64,000 nucleotides of DNA from a virus (lineage: Duplodnaviria > Caudoviricetes). The notes under the pieces were generated by a model. It saw only the letters and a list, made by a program, of their open reading frames with translations. It searched no databases and was not told where the DNA came from. The position numbers and the translations under genes are program-made. The stretch covers positions 20,380-84,379 of IMG/VR virus record IMGVR_UViG_3300032314_000513, one strand, 5' to 3'. Each line of letters opens with the position of its first letter. Within the stretch, counting starts at the first letter, position 1. Below are positions 23,242 to 56,510 of the stretch, piece by piece.

Positions 23242-26200
23242 ATGAGTAGTACATTTTTAGGAGGAGATACTTTTAGTTTTATTAGTGGCGGTGCCGGTGG
23301 TGGCGGTGGAACTGATGGTTCTGCAGGTACATCAGGCGTATCAGGAACTTCAGGTACATCAGGTACTCTAGGTACTAGTGGTATAAGCTATGGCTCTAGT
23401 GGTACTAGTGGAACTAGTGCTTCTTCAGGTACTTCAGGCTCAACAGGTTTAACAGGTTCAAGCGGTACTTCAGGTGCAGGTGGTTCTAGTGGTACTTCAG
23501 GAAATTCAACTGCAGGTACTTCAGGTACAACAGGTTCAAGCGGTTCAAGTGGTTCAAGTGGTGTGAGTGGAACAAATGGTACAGCAGGTTCAAATGGTAC
23601 ATCAGGCTCTAGTGGAAATAATGGCTCTAGTGGTACTTCAGGTGCTGCAGGGTCAAGCGGTAATAGTGGTACTAGTGGTGTCAATGGTACTAGTGGAACA
23701 TCAGGTTCTACAGGTACATCAGGTTCTTCTGCCTCTTCAGGAACTTCAGGTTCTAGTGGTAGTGCAGGTACAACAGGTACGGATGGTAGTAATGGTACTT
23801 CAGGTTCAGCAGGTACTTCAGGTCGTGATGCAACTGCAGGAACAAGTGGTCGTGATGCGACTGCAGGAACAAGTGGTCGTGATGCGACTTCAGGTTTAGA
23901 TGGTTCTTCAGGTACTTCAGGAATAGATGGTACAAATGGTTCTTCAGGTACTTCTGCATCAAGTGGAACTTCTGCAACTAGTGGAGCAAATGGTACTTCA
24001 GGTACAGATGGTACAAGTGGTACTTCAGGTCGTGATGCAACTGCAGGTACTTCAGGACAAGATGCAACAGCAGGTACCTCAGGTTCTTCTGCAACAGCAG
24101 GAACTTCAGGTTCTTCTGCTTCTTCAGGTTCAAGTGGAACTAATGGTTCAAGCGGTACTTCAGGTACAACAGGCTCTTCAGGAACAGCAGGTTTATCAGG
24201 AGATAGATATAGAACGACCTCAAGTACTGAATTTACTTTATCAGGTTCAGGACAAATTACAATTACAATTGGTTTAGGCCTTTCTTACACAATAGGACAA
24301 GCTGTAACCATTGCTTACGATATTAACGACATTCAATTTGGTGATGTTGTATCTTATAATTCAAATAATGGAACTTTAGTATTTAATGCAACAACATTTA
24401 CAGGTTCAGGAACATACAACTTTTGGACTGTAAACTTATCAGGTGCTGCAGGAGGAGATGGTTCTTCAGGTACTTCAGGTTCTTCAGGAACAAATGGTAC
24501 TTCAGGTTCTTCAGGCACTAGTGGTACAAGTGCAAGTTCAGGTTCTAGCGGAACTACAGGAACAGATGGTTCTAGTGGTACAAGTGGAGTAGATGGTACT
24601 TCAGGTACTGATGGCTCTAGCGGTACTTCAGGCATTGATGGTACTTCAGGAACAGATGGTTCTAGTGGAACAGATGGTAGCTCAGGAACTTCAGGTTCTA
24701 GCGGAACTACAGGTACAGATGGTAGCTCAGGAACTTCAGGAACAGATGGTTCTAGTGGTACTTCAGGTACAGACGGAAGCTCAGGAACTGATGGTTCTTC
24801 AGGTACAACAGGTACAGATGGTTCAAGCGGAACAGATGGTAGCTCAGGTACAGATGGTAGCTCAGGAACTTCAGGAACTACAGGTACTACAGGTACTTCA
24901 GGTTCTTCAGGAACTAGTGGAACTTCTGCAACTTCAGGTTCAAGTGGAACTTCAGGTACAGATGGTAGCTCAGGAACTTCAGGCTCATCAGGAACTACAG
25001 GTACCTCAGGAACTTCAGGTTCTTCAGGAACAGATGGTTCTAGTGGTACTTCAGGCTCTAGTGGAACAACAGGTACTTCAGGTACTTCTGCAACAGCAGG
25101 TTTATCAGGAGATAGATATAGAACAGCCTCTACAACTTCTGCAACTTTAGGAGTTAGTGGTACTATAACAATCGGTTTATCTTTAGCATACACCTCTGCT
25201 CAAACATTTATAATGACTTATGATAGTTCAAACTATCAAATTTGTCAAGTAGTTACATATAATCCTTCAAATGGATTATTAACATATTCAGCACCTGTTA
25301 CAGTTGTAGGTTCAGGTACTTATGATGTATGGGTTGTTAACTTAGCAGGAGCTTCAGGAACTTCAGGTTCTTCAGGTACTTCTGCATCAAGTGGAACTTC
25401 AGGTACAACAGGTACTTCAGGTACGGATGGTAGTTCAGGAACTTCAGGTTCTTCAGGTACTTCAGGTTCAAGTGGAACTTCAGGTTCTTCAGCTACTTCA
25501 GGAACTTCTGCCTCTGCAGGAACTAGTGGTAGTTCAGGAGCAGCAGGAGATAGATATGCTACTACTTCAGTAGAAACATTTACATTAGGAAATAGTGGTT
25601 CATTAACCGTATCTCCTAATTTATCATATACTGTAGGTCAATCAATTATTATAGCTTATGATATTAATAATTACCAAGAGTGTAATGTAGTATCTTATAC
25701 AGCTGTTCCGGGTATATTATATTTTGATGCTCCTACAATAACAGTAGGTAGTGGAGAATATAGCTCATGGGAAATTAACTTAAATGGTGCTACAGGTGGT
25801 GCAGGTTCAAGTGGAACTTCAGGTTCTGCAGGAACTTCAGGAACTACAGGAACAGATGGTTCATCAGGAACAAGTGGTACAAGTGGTACAGACGGAAGCT
25901 CAGGTACAACAGGTACTGATGGTTCTAGCGGTTCTTCAGGTACTTCAGGTGAATCAGGTTCTTCAGGAACGAGTGGTAGCACAGGAACTTCAGGAAGCTC
26001 AGGAACAAGTGGTTCTTCAGGTACTTCAGGAGTAAGTGGTGCTAGTGGAACTTCAGGTTCTTCAGGTACAGATGGTAGCAATGGCACAAGTGGTAGCTCA
26101 GGTTCAAGTGGTACTGATGGTAGTAATGGAACTAGTGGTACAACAGGTACTAGTGGAACAGATGGTTCTAGTGGTACTTCTGCTGCTGATGGAACAAGCG

Positions 26201-26415
26201 GTACTTCAGGAGAAAATGGTACTTCAGGAACTACAGGAACAGATGGTTCAAGTGGTACTGATGGAAGTAGTGGAACTTCAGGCACAGCAGCAACAGCAGG
26301 TACAGCAGCAACTTCAGGATTATCTACTTTAATGGCAGGAACAAGTGGAAGTACAATTACTATTCCACCTGCAGAAGCAACTACTAGTACAACAACAACT
26401 ACTACAACAGTCTAA
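23242..26415 (+). CDS. Gly-Thr/Ser-triplet fibre protein with three internal beta-domains
   Basis: GTS/GSS/GTD triplets; three GDRY...SY...W.VNL.GA domains. Confidence 0.85.
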   Translation: MSSTFLGGDTFSFISGGAGGGGGTDGSAGTSGVSGTSGTSGTLGTSGISYGSSGTSGTSASSGTSGSTGLTGSSGTSGAGGSSGTSGNSTAGTSGTTGSSGSSGSSGVSGTNGTAGSNGTSGSSGNNGSSGTSGAAGSSGNSGTSGVNGTSGTSGSTGTSGSSASSGTSGSSGSAGTTGTDGSNGTSGSAGTSGRDATAGTSGRDATAGTSGRDATSGLDGSSGTSGIDGTNGSSGTSASSGTSATSGANGTSGTDGTSGTSGRDATAGTSGQDATAGTSGSSATAGTSGSSASSGSSGTNGSSGTSGTTGSSGTAGLSGDRYRTTSSTEFTLSGSGQITITIGLGLSYTIGQAVTIAYDINDIQFGDVVSYNSNNGTLVFNATTFTGSGTYNFWTVNLSGAAGGDGSSGTSGSSGTNGTSGSSGTSGTSASSGSSGTTGTDGSSGTSGVDGTSGTDGSSGTSGIDGTSGTDGSSGTDGSSGTSGSSGTTGTDGSSGTSGTDGSSGTSGTDGSSGTDGSSGTTGTDGSSGTDGSSGTDGSSGTSGTTGTTGTSGSSGTSGTSATSGSSGTSGTDGSSGTSGSSGTTGTSGTSGSSGTDGSSGTSGSSGTTGTSGTSATAGLSGDRYRTASTTSATLGVSGTITIGLSLAYTSAQTFIMTYDSSNYQICQVVTYNPSNGLLTYSAPVTVVGSGTYDVWVVNLAGASGTSGSSGTSASSGTSGTTGTSGTDGSSGTSGSSGTSGSSGTSGSSATSGTSASAGTSGSSGAAGDRYATTSVETFTLGNSGSLTVSPNLSYTVGQSIIIAYDINNYQECNVVSYTAVPGILYFDAPTITVGSGEYSSWEINLNGATGGAGSSGTSGSAGTSGTTGTDGSSGTSGTSGTDGSSGTTGTDGSSGSSGTSGESGSSGTSGSTGTSGSSGTSGSSGTSGVSGASGTSGSSGTDGSNGTSGSSGSSGTDGSNGTSGTTGTSGTDGSSGTSAADGTSGTSGENGTSGTTGTDGSSGTDGSSGTSGTAATAGTAATSGLSTLMAGTSGSTITIPPAEATTSTTTTTTTV

Positions 26416-28330: not shown

Positions 28331-30652
28331 ATGAATAATATAAATCCAAATACCTTATTAGCTGCTAGTGGAAATAATAACCCTACTAATAATAATATTC
28401 GTACTCTAATTCAATTTTTATGGCAAGTACAAGGAGCAACTTCATATTATCCAACACCTATTGGTATAAATGATATAGGATATGGAGCAAGTGATGAAAC
28501 ATTCTTTTTTAATGGAGTAGATTCAGATTTATTAAGTTCTAATTATCAAGAAGATATATTCATAGTAGTAAGGAATTTGACAAGTATAGCTCCTTATGAC
28601 CAAACTTATGATATAAGATACGCTAATAATGCAAATGAATTAATTCAAATTGCAAATTCATATTTATTCGAAGGTCAATCAGCTTATACAAATACAAGTA
28701 CAGCAATTAATGGGATGTTAAATAGTAACATTCTAATTATGCCATATAATTTACCAAATTTTTCAACTAATTTACAAGTTGTTCCTACAGATGGAGATGC
28801 AGGAAATTTAGGTATCGTATGCGGTTTTATTTCAGGATTTACCTCTTGTATATCAAAATATCTTACAACACCTGCATTAGTTAGATGTTTTACATCAGGA
28901 TACACACAAGGTGATAATGTTGGAACTTATATGTCTAACAACACAAACCCAATTGTTTTAAGTTATGCAAATAATTATGCAATTCAAATGGTTGAGGGGG
29001 AAAATTTAGAATTAAATAATACAGGTGATATTCCTAATGGTTCAGAATCTTTTTCTTTTAGTTGTTGGTTTAAAGCAGATAATACATCTACTACACAAGT
29101 TTTGGCATCATGGGGATATATTCAAGTACAAATAACAAACAACAATGTTCAAATACTTGTTAATGGAACTTATCAAGATTTAGGTGGAAGTGTTTTATCT
29201 GCAGATACTTGGTACAATGTATTTTTTACATACGATACAACAAGTTCCTTATTAAGTTATGAGCTATTTAATTTTAGTGGCTCTATTGATTCAGGTAATA
29301 CAACTGTTGCTATAAATAACCCAACTCAAAACTTTTATTTAAGTGATTCTACAAATGTTGACAGTTTTGTAGGTTACATTAAATCTTGCATGTTGTATTC
29401 ATTTACATTATCTCAGAATCAAATAGATAGTGATTATGCTAATATGGTGGCTTTAGTTAATGCTACACCATCAGCTCCAACAACAACTACAACTAGTACT
29501 ACTACAACAACAACTACAATTTGTGCACCATATATTAATAATATTATTATTTCTAATGGTTCTTATACTGCTGCCAATGGAACTTATACAAGAGCTAATC
29601 CTTCAGAAGCTTTTGCTCTAACAGGTGGAGGTGGTTCTATATTCTTTGGTGGTGATGCTTGGTATATTTTTAATACTGCAGTTGGTAATGTTGCAAGAAA
29701 TACCTCTCAGCTAGGTACAGGAACTTGGGAACCTTGGGCTCCGGGAAATTCAACAGGAATTACTGCAGAGTATTCTAGTTATGTTTGTCCAACAACGACA
29801 ACTACGACAACTAGCACCACAACTACTTCTACAACGGAAGTTCCTACAACTACAACTAGCACCACAACTACTTCTACAACGGTAGCTCCTACTACTAGTA
29901 CGACTACGACAACTAGTACAGCATCAGGAGGTCTCGTTACAGATGGATTAATAGTTAATTTAGATGCAAGTAATCCTTCTTCTTATTCAGGCTCAGGTAA
30001 TACATGGACTGACTTAACAGGTAATGGATATAATGCAACAAGACAAGGTTCTGTACCATTTACTTCAGCAGGTCAACAATCTTATTTTGGTTTTAGTGGC
30101 TCAAGTTCTAATTACTTCTTAGGTAATAGTAATTTATATGGATTTAACTCTAATCAAATTAGTGGAACTGTTGGTATAACTGTTTCAATGATATTTAGAC
30201 CATCAAATACTAGTACTAGAAGCACTTTATGGTCAACTTACGCAAGTGATAAAGGAAGTGTTTTTGAAATTGGAACATTAGGTGGATTATGGACAAATAC
30301 ATTAAGACAGTATTTAAGTGATAATGGTCCTATTCGTAGCTCTGATAATAGAGGTGGTGCAAATACAATATCAAATGGAACAACTTACTTAATGACAGTT
30401 ACTTGGAATCAATCAACTTTTACAAGTACTATGTATGTAAATGGTAGTGCAATTGCACAAAGTAATGTTGGTTTTAATAAAAATAATATAACTTCAGCTT
30501 GGGCTAACTCAGCTAACTATAATTTAGGAGGAGACCCAACTCAAACAGGTACTTATGGAAATTTATATACTGCTTATGTATACAATAGACCATTGACAGC
30601 AGGAGAAGTGTTACAAAACTATAACGCATTACAATCAAGATTTGGATTATAA
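28331..30652 (+). CDS. Two-LamG/ConA lectin-like protein with Thr linkers
   Basis: FSFSCWF...WYNVFFTY; LDASNPSSYSGSGNTWTDLTGNG; VLQNYNA. Confidence 0.8.
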   Translation: MNNINPNTLLAASGNNNPTNNNIRTLIQFLWQVQGATSYYPTPIGINDIGYGASDETFFFNGVDSDLLSSNYQEDIFIVVRNLTSIAPYDQTYDIRYANNANELIQIANSYLFEGQSAYTNTSTAINGMLNSNILIMPYNLPNFSTNLQVVPTDGDAGNLGIVCGFISGFTSCISKYLTTPALVRCFTSGYTQGDNVGTYMSNNTNPIVLSYANNYAIQMVEGENLELNNTGDIPNGSESFSFSCWFKADNTSTTQVLASWGYIQVQITNNNVQILVNGTYQDLGGSVLSADTWYNVFFTYDTTSSLLSYELFNFSGSIDSGNTTVAINNPTQNFYLSDSTNVDSFVGYIKSCMLYSFTLSQNQIDSDYANMVALVNATPSAPTTTTTSTTTTTTTICAPYINNIIISNGSYTAANGTYTRANPSEAFALTGGGGSIFFGGDAWYIFNTAVGNVARNTSQLGTGTWEPWAPGNSTGITAEYSSYVCPTTTTTTTSTTTTSTTEVPTTTTSTTTTSTTVAPTTSTTTTTSTASGGLVTDGLIVNLDASNPSSYSGSGNTWTDLTGNGYNATRQGSVPFTSAGQQSYFGFSGSSSNYFLGNSNLYGFNSNQISGTVGITVSMIFRPSNTSTRSTLWSTYASDKGSVFEIGTLGGLWTNTLRQYLSDNGPIRSSDNRGGANTISNGTTYLMTVTWNQSTFTSTMYVNGSAIAQSNVGFNKNNITSAWANSANYNLGGDPTQTGTYGNLYTAYVYNRPLTAGEVLQNYNALQSRFGL

Positions 30653-30678: not shown

Positions 30679-31476
30679 ATGCCATACGCAGATTTAACAT
30701 TTCAACTTCAGCCTAATCTGAGATTTGTTGCAAATGATTTTGTAACACTAACAGGTGTTAACTATACTACTACAACTAGTACTACAACTACTACAACTAC
30801 ATTGAATGTAATAAGTAGTGGATTGCAATTATATGTTGATGCTAGTAATCCTGCTTCATATTCAGGAACAGGAAGTACATGGTATGATTTAAGTGGAAAT
30901 GGTTATAATGGTACATTAAGTGGTAGTACAGCTTATAATTCTGCAAACGGTGGTTATATTTCCACACAATCTAATACAGGATATATAGATTTTGGTCTTT
31001 CTTCTCAAGGAAGTAGTACTAGTGCTTTTACTTGGGGTGGTTGGTTTAATGTTCCAAGTTTTACAAATATCCCTATGGCAAGAGGCAATGATATGACAGG
31101 AGGTTATCCCAATGGATGGAATCTTGCTACTGTATTCTTGTCAAACGCATTTAATGCTTCAATAATCACTTCTGTACCCGGTATAACTCAAACAAATAGT
31201 TCATACTCTTCAAGTCCAAGTAGTAATACTTGGTATAATCATATATCAGTATGGAATCCGGGAGTAAGTTTAAAAGTATATATAAATGGTGTTTTAAGAG
31301 CTACTGTAAATACTTCAAATACAGTTTTAAGAAATTCAGGTACAGGTTGGAATAGTTCAAATGATGCTACAAAGTATAACGCTAGTTATGGTTCAATGAT
31401 TGTTTATAATATAGCATTGAGTGATGCACAAGTTCTTCAAAACTTTAATTCAACTAAAACAAGATTTGGATATTAA
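30679..31476 (+). CDS. LamG/ConA lectin-like protein with a partial fibre domain at the N-terminus
   Basis: MPYADLTFQLQPNLRFVANDFV, Thr run, VDASNPASYSG... Confidence 0.8.
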   Translation: MPYADLTFQLQPNLRFVANDFVTLTGVNYTTTTSTTTTTTTLNVISSGLQLYVDASNPASYSGTGSTWYDLSGNGYNGTLSGSTAYNSANGGYISTQSNTGYIDFGLSSQGSSTSAFTWGGWFNVPSFTNIPMARGNDMTGGYPNGWNLATVFLSNAFNASIITSVPGITQTNSSYSSSPSSNTWYNHISVWNPGVSLKVYINGVLRATVNTSNTVLRNSGTGWNSSNDATKYNASYGSMIVYNIALSDAQVLQNFNSTKTRFGY

Positions 31477-49162: not shown

Positions 49163-49834
49163 ATGGCAGAAGTACAGGCTTTAGCATTAACGCAGGAACA
49201 ATTACTGCAATTTCAGATAGTAAATAATACAAATTTTCCTATCCCTAACATTCCGTTTTTAACACAGAATGATAGTTTTAATGCTACAACTCAATATCAA
49301 TATACACTTCCACCAAATCTTAATATACCAACTGTAATAACGCCTGTTGTTACTATTTTAAATACACCTGCATTACAAACAATAATTCCTATTGATGTTA
49401 CTACAGGAACTCAACTTACTTATGAGCAAATAACTACATCTATTAGTACTAATAATTATAGTACTAATTTCTTTTATGCTCAATCTGTAAGTTGTAATCA
49501 AGTAGGTCAGGTATTTACATATAATGATACTGATATAGCAGGTAATGGAACTGTAAATGCACTTCCATTTACTATTGACCCTTATCAAAAACAATGTGCT
49601 GTTTATTATTATCCTCCTGAAAATCTTGTAACTTTTAATGGTACTAGTTCATTAAACTTTACTATGTTAGCTGATACTACATTAAATTTAAAAGTATTTT
49701 CTAGTAGTACTTCTCCTTCTCAAATATTAGATGAAATATCAGGATACAAAGACAATGCTTTTACAGAAATAGAAGCGGCTATGGGTTCTGATGTATTTAC
49801 TGATTATTGTAACTATTTAATTGATAACGAATAA
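49163..49834 (+). CDS. Paralogue of the putative major capsid protein
   Basis: DIAGN...IDPYQKQ aligns with DANGN...IDPYQQQ. Confidence 0.7.
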   Translation: MAEVQALALTQEQLLQFQIVNNTNFPIPNIPFLTQNDSFNATTQYQYTLPPNLNIPTVITPVVTILNTPALQTIIPIDVTTGTQLTYEQITTSISTNNYSTNFFYAQSVSCNQVGQVFTYNDTDIAGNGTVNALPFTIDPYQKQCAVYYYPPENLVTFNGTSSLNFTMLADTTLNLKVFSSSTSPSQILDEISGYKDNAFTEIEAAMGSDVFTDYCNYLIDNE

Positions 49835-52545
49835 TGCCAAGTTTTACAATAAATATTAATGGAGATAACTATACAGTAGGCTATGATGGAACATTTAATA
49901 GTCCACAAGGCTTACTTCCTGCATTAAATAATTTAGGATTTGGTACATTTTGGATAGAACAAGTTAGTGGAAATAATGTATTAACTACAACAGACAATGT
50001 TAATGTATATTCAACTGCTGAGACTAATTCTGACCCAACTACGACTACTACAACAAGTACGACTACAACAAGTACTACTATAGCTCCTATTCCAACAAGT
50101 ACGACCACTAGTACAAGTACTACAACGACTACAGAAACTTCTACAAGTACAACTACAACGAGTACAACACTTGCTCCGACAACGAGTACGACCACAACTA
50201 CAACTACTCCTGCAGGACCAACAACAACGAGTACGACAACAACTACTACAACATTATTTGCTCAAACAGTAAGATATGCAAGTAATCAAACAGATGCTTG
50301 TTTAAATCCAACAGGTACTCAGAATGTAACAGGTAACGCTACATCTTTTTGTGGTTGTACGATATTTAATTCAGCAGGTTTTGTAACGCTTCCTAATGGA
50401 AACTATGTTTTAGCTTATAGCGGTAGCACTTTAAATATTAATATTTCAGGATTCCCAACTACAACTGCAACTGTTTATGGTGGTGGATGCGGAACTTGTC
50501 CTTTAAGTACTTCAACTACCACTACAAGTACTACCCTACAACAAGTTTGGTATCAATTAACAAATTGTAATGGAGGCGGTACTGTTTATACAACAAATTA
50601 TGATATTGGCTATGCAATAGTAGGTGATAGAGTATTTGGAACTGTTTTAGGTGTTCCTTCAACTTTAGTAGTGGCAAGTGTATTATTTAGCAACCCCGGT
50701 GGAACTCAAATAGGGATTGTTAATTCAGGGTTAACAGGCTGTCCTGCTTCTACTACAACTACTACAACTACTACAACATTACCTCCTGTAACTTTAGATT
50801 TAACTGCTAATTGTACAGGAGTTACGCAAACAATAACGATAGATAATTTCGCAGGTGGTGATGGTGTAACTTATTATGCAAATGACACTACTTATGATAA
50901 TCCTTCTTCTGCATCAGGTGGAGCTACAAGCATTATCGTAGGTGGAACTAGAACTTATAATAATCAACCAAACGGAACTAGATATATATATGTTTTTAGT
51001 GCAAGTAGAAATACTGTTAAACAAGGTGGTCAAACTGATTGTGTAACTACAACAAGTACAACTACAACTACTACAACTATACAACAAGTATGGTATGCAA
51101 TGGATATTTGTGATGTAGGTGGAACAGCTAATTCGACAAATTATGATATTGGCTATGCTGCAGTAACAGACAGGGTGTTTGGGACAGTTTCAGGCACTCC
51201 AAGAACATTAGTAGTTACTTCAGTATTAACTTCAGACCCCGGTGGAACACAAATAGGGATTACTAATTCAGGTTTAACAGGTTGTCCTACCACTACAAGT
51301 ACTACGACTACTACTACTACCCAAGCACCTGTCAATGCAAGTGTTAACTCGGTATGTACAGGAATTACGCAAACAATAACTGTAAATAACTTTACAGGTG
51401 GAGATGGAGCAACATATTATGCTAATACAACTACTTATGCAGACCCTGTAAGTGCTGCTGCAGGTCCTGTTACTTTAGTAATTGGTGGAACAAGAGATTA
51501 TCTAAATCAAACAAATGGTACTAGATATATTTATATAACATCTACAATCAGAACAAATGTTGTATCAGGTGGTCAAGTTTGTACAACAACAACAACTACT
51601 ACTTCTACTTCAACAAGTACAACAAGCACAACTTTTACAACTAGCAGTACAACAACTACGACTACTCTTCCTCCAATTAATGTTACTATAAGCTCGGTGT
51701 GTACAGGAGTTACTCAAACAATAAGTTTAAATTCATTCAGCGGTGGAGATGAAACTACTTATTTTGCAAGTGACACAACTTATTCTAGTCCTGCCTTAGC
51801 AGTTGCAGGTCCAACAAGTATAATTGTAGGAGGAACAAGAAGTTATACAAATCAGCCAAATGGAACAAGATATGTATATGTAACATCAGGAAATGTTAAT
51901 GTTATTAAGCAAGATGGTCAAACTTGTACTACGACAACTTCTACTACAACAAGTACAACTACTTTACCAATAACTAGTACTACAACTACGACTACAACTT
52001 TGCCAATAACTAGTACAACTACGACTACAACAACTTTACCTCCTGTAACTGCTAATATTAGCTCAGTTTGTACAGGAATTACCCAAACAATAACAGTTGA
52101 TACATTTGGCGGTGGAAGTGGAACTTATTTTGCAAGTACGACAACTTATGGAGACCCTGCAAGTGCAGCATCAGGTCCTGTAACTTCAGTTTCAGGCTCA
52201 AGAGATTATACAAATCAGCCAAATGGTACACGATATGTATATGTAACTTCAACAGGTGGTGCTCCTGTAGTGAAGCAAGGCGGACAAACTTGTACTACGA
52301 CAACTTCTACTACAACAAGTACAACTACTACTGCTCCAACTTGTACATCTTGGAATGTAGCTAATTTTAATGGATTTGGATTAACTGATACTGTTTTCTA
52401 TGTAGATTGTGCAGGTACTTCTACATCTCAAATTGTAAATGACGGCAATCAATTTGATATTTGTGTATTAGATTCAGGAATACCTACTCCTTATATGGAA
52501 TTTGGATATGGTTCAGTTAATACTAATTCAACCCCTTGCACTTAA
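49834..52545 (+). CDS. Thr-rich mucin-like surface protein with Cys-bounded repeat domains
   Basis: Poly-Thr linkers; two QVWY domains and four CTG[VI]TQT domains. Confidence 0.85.
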   Translation: MPSFTININGDNYTVGYDGTFNSPQGLLPALNNLGFGTFWIEQVSGNNVLTTTDNVNVYSTAETNSDPTTTTTTSTTTTSTTIAPIPTSTTTSTSTTTTTETSTSTTTTSTTLAPTTSTTTTTTTPAGPTTTSTTTTTTTLFAQTVRYASNQTDACLNPTGTQNVTGNATSFCGCTIFNSAGFVTLPNGNYVLAYSGSTLNINISGFPTTTATVYGGGCGTCPLSTSTTTTSTTLQQVWYQLTNCNGGGTVYTTNYDIGYAIVGDRVFGTVLGVPSTLVVASVLFSNPGGTQIGIVNSGLTGCPASTTTTTTTTTLPPVTLDLTANCTGVTQTITIDNFAGGDGVTYYANDTTYDNPSSASGGATSIIVGGTRTYNNQPNGTRYIYVFSASRNTVKQGGQTDCVTTTSTTTTTTTIQQVWYAMDICDVGGTANSTNYDIGYAAVTDRVFGTVSGTPRTLVVTSVLTSDPGGTQIGITNSGLTGCPTTTSTTTTTTTQAPVNASVNSVCTGITQTITVNNFTGGDGATYYANTTTYADPVSAAAGPVTLVIGGTRDYLNQTNGTRYIYITSTIRTNVVSGGQVCTTTTTTTSTSTSTTSTTFTTSSTTTTTTLPPINVTISSVCTGVTQTISLNSFSGGDETTYFASDTTYSSPALAVAGPTSIIVGGTRSYTNQPNGTRYVYVTSGNVNVIKQDGQTCTTTTSTTTSTTTLPITSTTTTTTTLPITSTTTTTTTLPPVTANISSVCTGITQTITVDTFGGGSGTYFASTTTYGDPASAASGPVTSVSGSRDYTNQPNGTRYVYVTSTGGAPVVKQGGQTCTTTTSTTTSTTTTAPTCTSWNVANFNGFGLTDTVFYVDCAGTSTSQIVNDGNQFDICVLDSGIPTPYMEFGYGSVNTNSTPCT

Positions 52546-52612: not shown

Positions 52613-53602
52613 ATGTACAAACATAAGACCCTAACACTAATGTGTGTTCAGCCTTGCATACAATACTATGCTTGGCAAGTGGAAGTGATGTTAACCAATT
52701 TCAAAAATCTTAGAATCCACGAAGAATTTAATGTTCATACCCTTTGGGCGTTTAATAAGAACGAATCCGATTGGGAAGCAAAAAGAGCCATTATCAAGAA
52801 AGTAGAAGATGCTTACTCTGATGTGGCTGAATTTCATTATTACGAAGACACAAGAGAATATCCAATAAGTTACATAAGCTCAATTAGACCTAATGTACTT
52901 AAACAGCATTTTCAAGCATTTCCTGAATTAAGTGATGAAACTATATTTTACCACGACTGTGATGTAGTTTTTACTCGTTTCCCTCTATTTTTACATAATT
53001 ACCAACAAAAAGATAATAATTGGTATGTATCTGATACTATTTCTTATATAGGGCATAATTACATACAATCTAAAGGGGATGATGTATTGAAAAAAATGTG
53101 TGATATAGTAGGTATTTATAAAGATGAAGTTAGACTTAGAGAAGGACAATCAGGTGGTGCTCAATACATTATGAAAAATGTAGATTTTGCTTTTTTCCAT
53201 AAAGTAGAAAAAGATTCAGAAAAACTTTTTAAAGAAATAACTGAGCTTAACAATAAAAAGAAACAAGCTGACCCAACCCATCATGAATTACAAATATGGT
53301 GTGCTGATATGTGGGCTGTTTTATGGAACGCTTGGATGAGAGGTTATAATACTAATGTAATTAAAGAAATGGACTTTTGTTGGGCTACTGATTCAGCTAA
53401 AACATGGGAGGAAAAGATATTATTCCATAATGCAGGTGTAACAGGAAGTCCTAATGAAAAACTTTTTTATAAAGGTAAATATATAGCACAATTGCCTTAC
53501 GAAGATGAAGGATTAGATTATGATGTTGAAAAGGCTTCATATAAGTATTTTGAAATTATTAAATCAATCGGTAAAAATTCATGTTTATATGGGACTATTT
53601 AA
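52613..53602 (+). CDS. GT95/GT96-like protein O-glycosyltransferase
   Basis: YYAWQ, SIRP, HDCD, GGAQY, WCADMWA. Confidence 0.65.
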   Translation: MYKHKTLTLMCVQPCIQYYAWQVEVMLTNFKNLRIHEEFNVHTLWAFNKNESDWEAKRAIIKKVEDAYSDVAEFHYYEDTREYPISYISSIRPNVLKQHFQAFPELSDETIFYHDCDVVFTRFPLFLHNYQQKDNNWYVSDTISYIGHNYIQSKGDDVLKKMCDIVGIYKDEVRLREGQSGGAQYIMKNVDFAFFHKVEKDSEKLFKEITELNNKKKQADPTHHELQIWCADMWAVLWNAWMRGYNTNVIKEMDFCWATDSAKTWEEKILFHNAGVTGSPNEKLFYKGKYIAQLPYEDEGLDYDVEKASYKYFEIIKSIGKNSCLYGTI

Positions 53603-53819
53603 TAAAATACAAGAAATTGTAACAGCATATTCAACAATGATGAATCCTACTGAAGAACAGAAGCAAGTTGCAGGAAGAAGATTACAAGTTTGTATGACTT
53701 GCGAGGCTTGGAGAAATGTTCCTGTAGACCATTGCTCAAAATGTGGATGTGCTACTAAAGCAAAAGTATTTACACCAAAAGGACAAGAAGCATGTCCTAT
53801 GGGTAAATGGACAATTTAA
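53589..53819 (+). CDS. Small Cys-rich metal-binding protein (DUF6171-like)
   Basis: RRLQVCMTC...CSKCGC...CPMGKW; start moved to MGLFNK. Confidence 0.7.
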   Translation: MGLFNKIQEIVTAYSTMMNPTEEQKQVAGRRLQVCMTCEAWRNVPVDHCSKCGCATKAKVFTPKGQEACPMGKWTI

Positions 53820-53828
53820 AATTAATTT

Positions 53829-54329
53829 ATGCCCTATTCGTATAACCTCTTTAAAGATGAAGTAAAGAAAAATATTGTAAATACATTTGAAAGAGATATA
53901 CAAATTTTAGATGTTGGTGCAGGTTGTGGTACCTATTCTAATTTGCTTAAAGCCAATTTCCCTAATATGGATGGGATTGAGATTTTTGAGCAATATGTTA
54001 ATGATTTCGATTTGCGTTCAAAGTACAATAAATTATATATATCTAATATATTAGATTTTGACATCAAGCCTTATGATTTATTTATAATGGGAGACATCAT
54101 TGAGCACTTAACATTTTATGAAGCTAAAAATTTGATTGATAAAATACATAGAGCAGATAAGTTTATGATGATTGCTGTACCTTATAATTACGAGCAAGGT
54201 GCTGAATTTGGTAATGTACATGAAATACATAAACAACCTGATTTGACTAAAGAGCTTTTTTTAGAAAGATATCCTTGTATGAAATATTTAATTGGAGATG
54301 ACCATTATGGTTATTTTACAAACTATTAA
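53829..54329 (+). CDS. Class I SAM methyltransferase
   Basis: ILDVGAGCG, GDIIEHL. Confidence 0.85.
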   Translation: MPYSYNLFKDEVKKNIVNTFERDIQILDVGAGCGTYSNLLKANFPNMDGIEIFEQYVNDFDLRSKYNKLYISNILDFDIKPYDLFIMGDIIEHLTFYEAKNLIDKIHRADKFMMIAVPYNYEQGAEFGNVHEIHKQPDLTKELFLERYPCMKYLIGDDHYGYFTNY

Positions 54330-54331
54330 TT

Positions 54332-55039
54332 ATGAGACTACCTACTGAATATGTAGAAACAAGAAAAAAGTACATTCTTTTTAAAAATGATTGTGGTGTT
54401 ACAGATATGACACGAAGGGGAGGTATTTATGAACATTATATATTTGATTACATAAAAGAAAAATTAAATGTACAAGGCACTACAATTATTGATGTAGGTG
54501 CTAATTTTGGTTTCCATACTTTAGAGTTTGCTGATTTGGTGGGTGATGAAGGGAAAGTATATTCTTTTGAGCCACAAAGATTGGTTTATTATCAATTATG
54601 TGGTAATGTTATTTTAAATGGAAGGGGTAATATATATCCCAATAATGTTGCCTTAAGTGATGAGAAAACCATTTTAAAAATGGAAAACTTACAATATTAT
54701 TCAGAGGAGGCAATAAACATAGGTAATGCACATTTAGATGCTTGTACTCACTTAGCTTATAATATGGTTGATGTTAATACTTTAGATTCATTTGAATTTG
54801 ATAATGTAAGTGTTTTAAAGATTGATGTACAAGGATATGAGCCAAAAGTTTTAGATGGAGCAAAAGAAACAATTTTAAAAAATAAACCTGTAATATTTAT
54901 TGAAGTGGAATCACCTCAATTAAGCATTTATGGATGGAACGAAAATGATATTTTTAGCCGTTTAGAAGCATTAGGATATACTTATACTAAAGTTATTGAT
55001 GCTGAACATTTGGTTGATTATGTTGCAATACCAAAATAA
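54332..55039 (+). CDS. FkbM-family methyltransferase
   Basis: DVGANFG, SFEP, KIDVQGYE. Confidence 0.9.
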   Translation: MRLPTEYVETRKKYILFKNDCGVTDMTRRGGIYEHYIFDYIKEKLNVQGTTIIDVGANFGFHTLEFADLVGDEGKVYSFEPQRLVYYQLCGNVILNGRGNIYPNNVALSDEKTILKMENLQYYSEEAINIGNAHLDACTHLAYNMVDVNTLDSFEFDNVSVLKIDVQGYEPKVLDGAKETILKNKPVIFIEVESPQLSIYGWNENDIFSRLEALGYTYTKVIDAEHLVDYVAIPK

Positions 55040-55041
55040 CC

Positions 55042-55692
55042 ATGATATTAGATTACTTTGAAGGAGCTTTCTACTTGAATTTAGATAAGCGTACAGAAAG
55101 AAAAGAAGCTTTTGAGAAAAGAAGCTCAGAAATTGGAATACAAGCCGAAAGGTTTTCCGCTACTCAATTAGGTGAAGGTGATGTACCAAACCCATTGAGA
55201 AATAAAGATTGGCATATAAAAATATCATGCACTTATTCTCATTTTGAAATGATTAAAGAAGCTAAAAGAAGAGGATGGAAGAATTGTTTAATATTTGAAG
55301 ATGATTGCATATTTGAACCAAATTTTATTGAAAAAATGAAAGAATGTGTACAAGAATTAAAACAAATAGAATGGGATATGTTTTATATGGGTGGTGAGCC
55401 TAATGCTGAATGTTATTCTATTTCTGATAATCTTGCTAAATGTACTACAGGACTTTATGGTACACATGCTTATGCAATAAATGAATGTTTTTATGATAAA
55501 ATTTTAAGCATACCATATACTTCAGGTGTTATTGACACATTATATTTATTTTATGATAGGAATAATAAGAACTATCTAATGTCAAAAGACCTATTAGTAA
55601 TACAAGATGAAGAATTTGTAAGTGATTTATGGAATGGAAAAATAAAAAGAACAGAACAATATCAAGAAGCCTATAAAAAATGGATAAAATGA
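55042..55692 (+). CDS. GT25 glycosyltransferase
   Basis: LNLDKRTER, CTYSH, IFEDD. Confidence 0.88.
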   Translation: MILDYFEGAFYLNLDKRTERKEAFEKRSSEIGIQAERFSATQLGEGDVPNPLRNKDWHIKISCTYSHFEMIKEAKRRGWKNCLIFEDDCIFEPNFIEKMKECVQELKQIEWDMFYMGGEPNAECYSISDNLAKCTTGLYGTHAYAINECFYDKILSIPYTSGVIDTLYLFYDRNNKNYLMSKDLLVIQDEEFVSDLWNGKIKRTEQYQEAYKKWIK

Positions 55693-56510
55693 AAAAATTA
55701 AGCTTTGTATGTACATCATACCGCAGATTTACATGTGTAGAAAGAATTGTTGCTCAATTTCATGCACAAACATACCCAAACAAGGAATTAATCATTTTTA
55801 ATACAGATGAGGAGTACCCTTATAGTTTGGGATTTGAGGATAGCTCTATAATAATTGTAAATAATGGAATAAACTACCAAACAGGAACTCCTTATGAAAA
55901 TAGAGGACAGATATGTAGAGATGCTGTAACACATGCTACAGGAGATTATTTCATGTTGGCAGATGATGATGACATTTATTTGCCTTGGCACATGCAACAA
56001 GCTGTAGATGGTATTGAGGCTAATCGAAAAGATGCTTGGAAACCTGAGCAAAGCTTTTTTGCTACACCCAATAAAGTACAAATGGTAATGAATACACTTG
56101 AGGCATCAGTTATTGTAAAAATGGAAAGGATAAGAGAAATTGGATTTAGAAGCGATATTACAGGATATGAAGGCCTAAGTTGGTACACTCAATTAAGAGA
56201 TGAAAAGCACTTAGATGAGCATAACAAGTATTATGTTCCTTCTTATTGTTTTAATTGGTCTGACCCTCATGAGATAGCAGGTCATAAGCAAAGTGGTGCT
56301 ATCGGTAGTCCCAATAATTTTGAAAATCATAAAGAAGCATCAAAAGATTATGCTAAACGACCTTTAGAGAAAATTTCTGAAGAAAAATTAAGGGAAACCT
56401 ACAAACCATATTATCATTATTTAAGAAAACATGTTGAAGATTTCCCCTTGGAGTTAATAAGTAAGTATATCCCTACTCAGGTATTTCAGGTAGAGAATTT
56501 ATTGTATTAA
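55689..56510 (+). CDS. GT2-like glycosyltransferase
   Basis: QTYPNKELII, ADDDDIY; start moved to the ATGA overlap. Confidence 0.85.
   Translation: MKKLSFVCTSYRRFTCVERIVAQFHAQTYPNKELIIFNTDEEYPYSLGFEDSSIIIVNNGINYQTGTPYENRGQICRDAVTHATGDYFMLADDDDIYLPWHMQQAVDGIEANRKDAWKPEQSFFATPNKVQMVMNTLEASVIVKMERIREIGFRSDITGYEGLSWYTQLRDEKHLDEHNKYYVPSYCFNWSDPHEIAGHKQSGAIGSPNNFENHKEASKDYAKRPLEKISEEKLRETYKPYYHYLRKHVEDFPLELISKYIPTQVFQVENLLY

Follow-up and report, generated by a model that had tools for sequence, protein, structure and literature searches.

The analysis concerns a 64-kb window (the whole stretch of DNA analyzed) out of the 84-kb IMG/VR virus record IMGVR_UViG_3300032314_000513, assigned to the Caudoviricetes. 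In it, a gene at positions 52613–53602 encodes a protein of 329 amino acids, here called GT, with the fold of a GT-A glycosyltransferase. At a probability of roughly 0.66, based on comparative sequence evidence, GT initiates O-glycosylation of the neighboring 903-amino acid protein, acting as a soluble, metal-dependent enzyme whose products would be extended by enzymes encoded downstream. The two genes are as follows.

49834–52545, plus strand: 903-amino acid mucin-like protein, predicted acceptor; 67-nucleotide gap to the GT gene
52613–53602, plus strand: GT gene; ATG start, 329 amino acids, soluble GT-A glycosyltransferase, phrog_4417

The placement of GT directly 3′ of a Thr-rich gene, as put forward in an earlier reading of the DNA from its letters alone (the sequence-only reading), was borne out by these coordinates. 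The 903-amino acid protein contains 15 Thr/Ser runs of 9–17 residues (171 residues in total), is 28% Thr, and carries the runs as internal linkers between Cys-bounded modules; Pfam and PHROG searches with it gave zero matches. As proposed, GT would work in the cytoplasm, drawing on a nucleotide sugar to place the first residue of the glycan on the hydroxyls of Thr (and Ser), and the poly-Thr runs of this upstream-encoded protein would be its target.

Poly-Thr tracts beside the GT gene

For comparison of gene neighborhoods, 80 IMG/VR loci carrying relatives of at least 45% identity were taken as the best tblastn matches to the query. Near-duplicates were removed to leave 56 non-redundant loci, and other open reading frames (ORFs) were counted within 10 kb. 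The immediately upstream ORF, on the same strand, contained a poly-Thr tract at 38 of the 56 loci, against 31 of 905 ORFs elsewhere and none of the 54 immediately downstream ORFs (Fisher p = 2e-35, a value that overstates the independence of loci akin to one another). With Thr runs masked, at least 17 clusters unrelated in sequence were distinguished among the upstream proteins. The comparison of genomes is strong evidence of a tie between the GT family and adjacent genes for poly-Thr proteins that are predicted to belong to the virion.

The same arrangement was seen among distant relatives, at about 30–37% identity to the query, in named phages and prophages. The GT gene of Enterococcus phage phiFL1A follows a major tail protein ending in ...TTTTTSTTTTTTSSTTTTTTTQASSK, and that of Clostridium phage phiCTP1 follows a 200-amino acid protein in the major-tail-protein position, ending in ...TTTTTNAPITTTTTTV. 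Lactobacillus phage iLp84 has its GT gene after a capsid protein, which ends in ...TTTTTTTSK, and a small protein with a Ser+Thr content of 40%; the ending ...TTTTTTTTT(T)HHD is common to the capsid-protease and tail proteins of Lactococcus phage 1706; and the tail protein of Staphylococcus phage SA2 ends in ...TTTTTTTTP. Upstream of the gene in Chryseobacterium phage MA9V-3 is a 429-amino acid protein with an internal Thr/Ser run of 22 residues. At 10 of 11 Bacillota prophage loci, a poly-Thr tail closes the product of the upstream gene, and the same tag often recurs on two or three proteins of the head and tail. Enzyme and poly-Thr tails are both present in phiFL1A and iLp84; in phiFL3A and phiFL4A, phages of the same host as phiFL1A, the enzyme is absent from the whole genomes, and the halves of the genomes that were read, with the structural and lysis genes, contain no tracts.

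Two side observations concern the form of these tags. Each of the Bacillota prophages (loci L095–L105) and Lactococcus phage 1706 (L092) has one tag per phage after the Thr run, namely QA, GA, SK, HHD or GGG; these residues, common to capsid, decoration and tail-tube proteins, may be part of a recognition signal or may reflect mere co-inheritance. In SA2 (L093:2117-2930), PT1-4 (L007:2469-3207) and Enterococcus phage nattely (L003:3550-4886), a short ORF in another frame overlaps the end of the major tail or capsid gene and consists of nearly nothing but poly-Thr blocks, e.g. PKPTTTTTTSSTTTTTTTTRPTTTTTTTEP. Frameshifting into such an ORF may yield an isoform of the structural protein with a long tag.

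Sequence family and conserved motifs

Five motifs that the sequence-only reading had listed were all found in GT, in the stated order: YYAWQ (residues 18–22), SIRP..LKQH (90–99), HDCD (114–117), GGAQY (181–185) and WCADMWA (229–235). In an alignment of 43 sequences (A1; the query and 42 relatives at 33–78% identity), W21, Q22, D115, D117, G181, G182, Q184, Y185, W229, M233 and W234 were invariant or at least 90% conserved, and equal conservation was seen beyond the motifs at Y77, D79, Y87, H272, G275 and K287. Because the motif positions coincide with conserved columns, they form a family signature and chance is ruled out.

The family corresponds to phrog_4417, annotated as of unknown function (E = 4.9e-64, 217 bits, residues 9–319 on profile positions 3–291 of 293). 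Clustering at 90% identity gives 4,129 clusters (E ≤ 0.001), and at 50% identity there are 795 representatives. Pfam and NCBIfam scans of GT returned zero significant matches; none of 240 relatives among the matches listed has a Pfam domain on record, and in public records they are called "hypothetical protein" or "prophage pi2 protein 34". When Firmicutes relatives were used to seed a profile search, a Pfam entry was likewise found on 0 of 120 matches. By tblastn against sequenced phages, the family was found in 77 records, from Lactobacillus, Enterococcus, Staphylococcus, Lactococcus and Clostridium phages and one Chryseobacterium phage. No divergent paralogues were detected when the 1,966 ORFs of every locus retrieved were searched locally with a hidden Markov model, and full-text literature searches on phage or virion glycosylation did not find a paper on the phrog_4417 family. 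As a side observation, orf49 of Lactobacillus phage LP65 (L008:4067-5092) is a very divergent member, with an hhalign probability of 99.3% to A1 at ~22% identity and just four close relatives in a collection of 5.8 billion proteins; its divergence indicates that the family reaches further than BLAST detects.

Predicted fold and active site

An AlphaFold2 model of GT, built from A1, had a GT-A fold (mean predicted local distance difference test score, pLDDT, 95.7; predicted template modeling score, 0.93). Foldseek against the PDB gave 181 chains at E ≤ 1e-3, and those among the matches listed were all glycosyltransferases. The best were UGGT (GT24), WbbM, and LgtC and glycogenin (GT8), followed by GT6 (E = 6e-8 to 1e-4), and VIA structure matches were, as with Foldseek, to GT8/GT24/GT6. 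At the level of fold, the closest structural neighbors of GT are the catalytic domains of GT8 and GT24. In BFVD, two family members came first, with GT8-annotated giant-virus proteins then the nearest viral models. The H114-D-C-D117 motif comes after strand 110–113, as in the GT-A fold, and H272 is the end of strand 270–272. By inspection, D115/D117, H272 and the invariant K287 appear similar to the residues that bind metal and diphosphate in GT8 enzymes. The model supports the assignment of GT as a DxD GT-A glycosyltransferase, and the fold indicates that the enzyme is probably retaining.

No membrane anchor was seen in GT: no hydrophobic segment was present (maximum 19-residue Kyte–Doolittle mean, 0.85), and strand 1 starts at residue 7. 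Searched by sequence and by profile, the PDB chains yielded no homologue; the only matches, to a sterol carrier and to TALE repeats, were rejected as chance ones. The Pfam scan gave zero match of GT to Glyco_transf_8 (PF01501). When A1 was compared by hhalign with four GT8 proteins from Bacillota genomes, the probability was 4.6% over 60 columns with the DxD region alone aligned, a weak test because the GT8 alignment is small.

Relation to GT95 and GT96

Taking the order of the GT motifs to resemble that in GT95 and GT96 enzymes, the sequence-only reading had placed GT in these plant-type families. The Pfam HPAT model for GT95 (PF23452; 307 positions, cut-off 23.9 bits) had zero match to the query at E ≤ 1 and zero matches to 148 relatives (sets of 43, 97, 7 and 1) at E limits from 0.01 to 10. 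Scans with the model of 401 Bacillota genomes gave no match, and neither did those of 11 virus records (own genome included) and 5 Bacillota genomes in which the family occurs; these genome-scan negatives are weak because the controls never gave a signal for the model. No GT95/GT96 entry was among the PDB matches of GT. The one positive lead came from an Atlas language-model search, in which 22 of the 30 nearest named clusters were phage clusters in which 10–40% of members carry PF23452 (scores of 0.96), and six of the 30 carry DUF7164.

Plant GT95 and GT96 enzymes are type-II membrane proteins of the Golgi/endoplasmic reticulum (ER) lumen, and GT95 is related to GT96 (PMC8012813). GT95 is also described as related to GT8 (PMC4908140), so the GT8-like fold of GT speaks neither for nor against kinship with GT95/GT96. 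A best profile match to another family such as GT8, together with a lack of peptide acceptor activity, had been named beforehand as grounds for giving up that kinship. Among solved folds, those of GT8/GT24 do come closest; with GT95 itself GT8-related, this is no clean refutation, and the hhalign comparison with the small GT8 alignment was negative (4.6%). Membership of GT in GT95/GT96 is not shown, and the assignment is not supported, given the lack of PF23452 matches in the query and relatives, the missing type-II anchor, and a predicted acceptor made of poly-Thr, not Ser-Hyp4 (Hyp, hydroxyproline). Nor is the notion of a eukaryote-like pathway supported by the extent of the family, which is phage-wide (795 clusters at 50% identity) and not a eukaryote-like import.

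Downstream genes and the initiating role

Downstream of GT lies a tightly packed set of genes on one strand, in the order Cys-rich ORF, two methyltransferases, GT25 and GT2. Other genes with poly-Thr runs lie in the fiber region of the window.

53589–53819, plus strand: six-Cys zinc-ribbon-like small protein; phrog_13558, weak DUF6171; 14-nucleotide overlap with the GT stop
53829–54329, plus strand: class I S-adenosylmethionine (SAM)-dependent methyltransferase, candidate glycan-capping enzyme; weak Pfam matches (Methyltransf_23, E = 1.7e-4)
54332–55039, plus strand: FkbM-family methyltransferase; PF05050, E = 1.9e-16; TIGR01444, E = 4.7e-27; phrog_8156
55042–55692, plus strand: GT25-family glycosyltransferase, candidate extender; PF01755, E = 2.8e-11
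55680–56510, plus strand: GT2-family glycosyltransferase, candidate extender; PF00535, E = 2.5e-6; last of the plus-strand block
28331–30652, plus strand: 773-amino acid fiber-like protein, possible further acceptor; four poly-Thr runs
23242–26415, plus strand: large fiber-region protein; one poly-Thr run
30679–31476, plus strand: large fiber-region protein; one poly-Thr run

The Pfam matches confirmed the two methyltransferases, GT25 and GT2 that had been named 3′ of GT, on the same strand. Together with the downstream genes of relatives, they also lend support to the role proposed for these enzymes, which would extend the glycan and methylate it. In the first two downstream ORFs of 54 non-redundant loci, we found 12 GT2, 7 GT32 (Gly_transf_sug) and 3 GT6 genes, ~9 methyltransferases and 4 radical SAM/SPASM genes; GT2 homologues lay 0–2.3 kb downstream of GT in 18 of the 80 loci. 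Relatives also occur as fusions in which the GT domain is N-terminal to a GT6, GT7C, GT2, GT32-type, GT25 or GT29 domain. The variety of these downstream genes and fusions makes GT the constant element beside the tagged protein. The same downstream ORFs (loci L009–L088, alignment A5) also include one 2OG-Fe(II) oxygenase, as well as homing-endonuclease domains (NUMOD4, HNH_3 and SegE GIY-YIG).

The initiating role was further considered in five Firmicutes phages with complete genomes, in all of which the enzyme and the tails occur together. Searches of these five genomes gave no gene of the GT2 or GT1/4 families, with controls giving signals in 14/14 genomes, and a Pfam scan of 45 proteins from two of the phages gave no glycosyltransferase among the 25 of 45 families listed. 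If these five phages glycosylate their tails unaided, the GT relative must add the first sugar. The earlier description of GT as an initiating protein O-glycosyltransferase therefore stands as far as the poly-Thr neighbors and its being the sole recognizable glycosyltransferase in these phages carry it; the initiation step itself we infer.

The small six-Cys protein appears to be a partner of GT. Its homologues lie 0–3 kb downstream in 19 of the 80 loci, and the ORF aligns with the C-terminal 60 residues of ~390-amino acid relatives (alignment A6), in which C348, C351, C364, C367, C369 and C383 are invariant; DUF6171 is fused in P0121. It is a separate gene here and in 95%-identical relatives and an in-frame fusion to GT in many of the ~390-amino acid relatives at 55–65% identity. 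From this fusion/fission pair, GT and the six-Cys protein probably act together, and the small zinc-ribbon protein would be a partner domain of GT. In an AlphaFold model of a fused GT and zinc-ribbon relative, the GT domain was confident and the C-terminal domain had a pLDDT of 49–76, at which the docking is not readable. The overlap of the GT stop (53600–53602) with the six-Cys ORF contains the run GTAAAAAT.

With three fiber-region proteins carrying poly-Thr runs, GT may have several substrates in the virus; these other proteins would probably be modified too, before particle assembly. The window is low in G+C, at about 29–37% near GT. M10 may be the true start in place of M1, and is the start in many relatives and in the Atlas copy. 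A promoter/terminator scan for operon signals was uninformative (56 sites versus 64 expected). At its 3′ end, the GT2 gene overlaps by 38 nucleotides (56473–56510) the 3′ end of a convergent 344-amino acid gene on the minus strand, and this overlap is the close of the plus-strand late block.

Alternative explanations

Three other accounts of GT were weighed. GT could be a divergent true member of plant/algal GT95 (HPAT) or GT96 (SGT1), acting on Ser, or on hydroxyproline after prolyl hydroxylation, within a eukaryote-like pathway. The PF23452-bearing Atlas clusters (22 of the 30 nearest), the 307-position length of the HPAT model, which fits the domain size, and the described links of GT95 to GT8 (PMC4908140) and to GT96 (PMC8012813), which agree with the GT8-like fold, all suit this account. 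Set against them are the silence of PF23452 in the query, the 148 relatives and the genomes scanned, the 240 listed relatives lacking a Pfam entry, an N terminus with no membrane anchor, and neighboring predicted acceptors that are pure Thr runs and not Ser-Pro4; we regard such membership as unlikely. Alternatively, GT25, GT2 or a host transferase might add the first sugar and GT a later residue. The window does encode two more glycosyltransferases, and the closest solved folds include the extenders LgtC, WbbM, GlyE, LARGE1 and XXYLT1, but GT is constant beside the poly-Thr gene when other glycosyltransferases change between loci, and is the sole recognizable one in the five small Firmicutes phages with poly-Thr tails, which makes a role confined to extension improbable.

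Still further from the evidence is a target other than protein, either host envelope glycans (lipopolysaccharide (LPS) or teichoic acid, in seroconversion or exclusion) or phage DNA bases, an account to which we give very little credence. LPS building is common for GT8, GT25 and GT2 relatives, and genes for recombination and sigma factors are found close to the GT gene in the Herelleviridae (Lpa804, SAC12B and LP65). However, the upstream ORF in those same Herelleviridae has poly-Thr or Thr-rich (TTVKP/TTVAP) repeats, the siphophage gene is inside the head or tail module, and a soluble enzyme with no membrane segment encoded in head/tail modules makes an envelope target unlikely. Glycosylation of phage DNA by GT-A enzymes is known; those enzymes have an R...DDD...EDY/F motif set and lie beside 5mYOX or ThyS genes (bioRxiv 10.1101/2023.12.21.572611). 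Neither these motifs nor that context was seen for GT, and DNA glycosylation was set aside.

Several points weigh against GT as the initiating enzyme for the poly-Thr protein. At 18 of the 56 loci, the ORF directly upstream lacks a tract, and the Fisher value is too strong because the 56 loci are the best query matches and mutually related. In bIL285, the poly-Thr tail is on a tail protein 1.3 kb downstream, and the adjacent capsid gene has none. The window encodes three glycosyltransferases, and the case for GT as initiator is drawn from other phages; host enzymes could also contribute. Retaining chemistry would follow from fold neighbors of 7–13% identity, and the literature yielded no biochemical or mass-spectrometry evidence for any family member.

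Significance and comparison with known systems

The large phrog_4417 family lacks a name in Pfam and NCBIfam and a functional one in PHROG. If GT is the enzyme proposed here, sugar-coated virions would be common among Bacillota and Bacteroidota phages, including therapy-relevant Enterococcus/Staphylococcus phages and dairy phages; glycosylated proteins would be predictable from sequence alone; and the enzyme with its tag might be a portable pair for O-glycosylating proteins in the bacterial cytoplasm. More tentatively, and with the balance tilted against it, this one GT family and its poly-Thr tags may be a general mucin-coat system of many phage lineages and a prokaryotic-virus sister of GT95/GT96. 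The lineages would include Firmicutes siphophages and myophages, Bacteroidota phages and giant phages. Particular to the window are the repeated internal Thr linkers in the 903-amino acid protein.

GT95 enzymes add arabinofuranose to Hyp, and GT96 enzymes add galactose to Ser, in Ser-Hyp4 motifs. HPAT (GT95) and SGT1 (GT96) are, as proposed for GT, initiating O-glycosyltransferases for repetitive structural proteins rich in hydroxy amino acids, with a similar domain size; they differ as type-II Golgi or ER membrane proteins acting on Hyp or Ser, whereas the phage GT is soluble and adjoins poly-Thr. The GT8/GT24 enzymes (glycogenin, 1zcu/3u2t; LgtC, 1g9r; UGGT, 5mu1; GlyE, 5gvv) share the DxD motif and the C-terminal His/Lys, and glycogenin, UGGT and GlyE all work on proteins or protein-linked glycans. 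Identity to GT is 7–13%, however, with no Glyco_transf_8 match and the 4.6% hhalign value against the four-sequence GT8 alignment. Animal GT27 polypeptide GalNAc-transferases are retaining GT-A enzymes that initiate O-glycans on dense Thr/Ser repeats. No homology to them was detected, and GT, with no lectin domain, would be cytoplasmic in contrast to their Golgi location. The capsid glycosyltransferase A064R of chlorovirus PBCV-1 (2p6w) belongs to another family, is a weaker structural match than GT8, and concerns atypical N-linked glycans in a eukaryotic virus.

As far as we know, mycobacteriophages are the only phages whose own enzymes have been shown to glycosylate the virion. The modified sites there are reportedly in C-terminal tails of virion proteins, which would parallel the poly-Thr tails of the Firmicutes relatives. 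That system differs in host phylum and in its tags, the tag here being a pure poly-Thr run found as internal linkers in the 903-amino acid protein. According to the part of PMC10877033 that cites Freeman et al. (2023), mycobacteriophage virion glycosylation by phage-encoded glycosyltransferases alters antibody recognition. In both cases, phage glycosyltransferases decorate, or here would decorate, the phage's own virion proteins (capsid and tail-tube proteins in the mycobacteriophages), and a phage glycosyltransferase occurs together with Ser/Thr-rich tags on virion proteins, a pairing that is seen here at the level of the genes.
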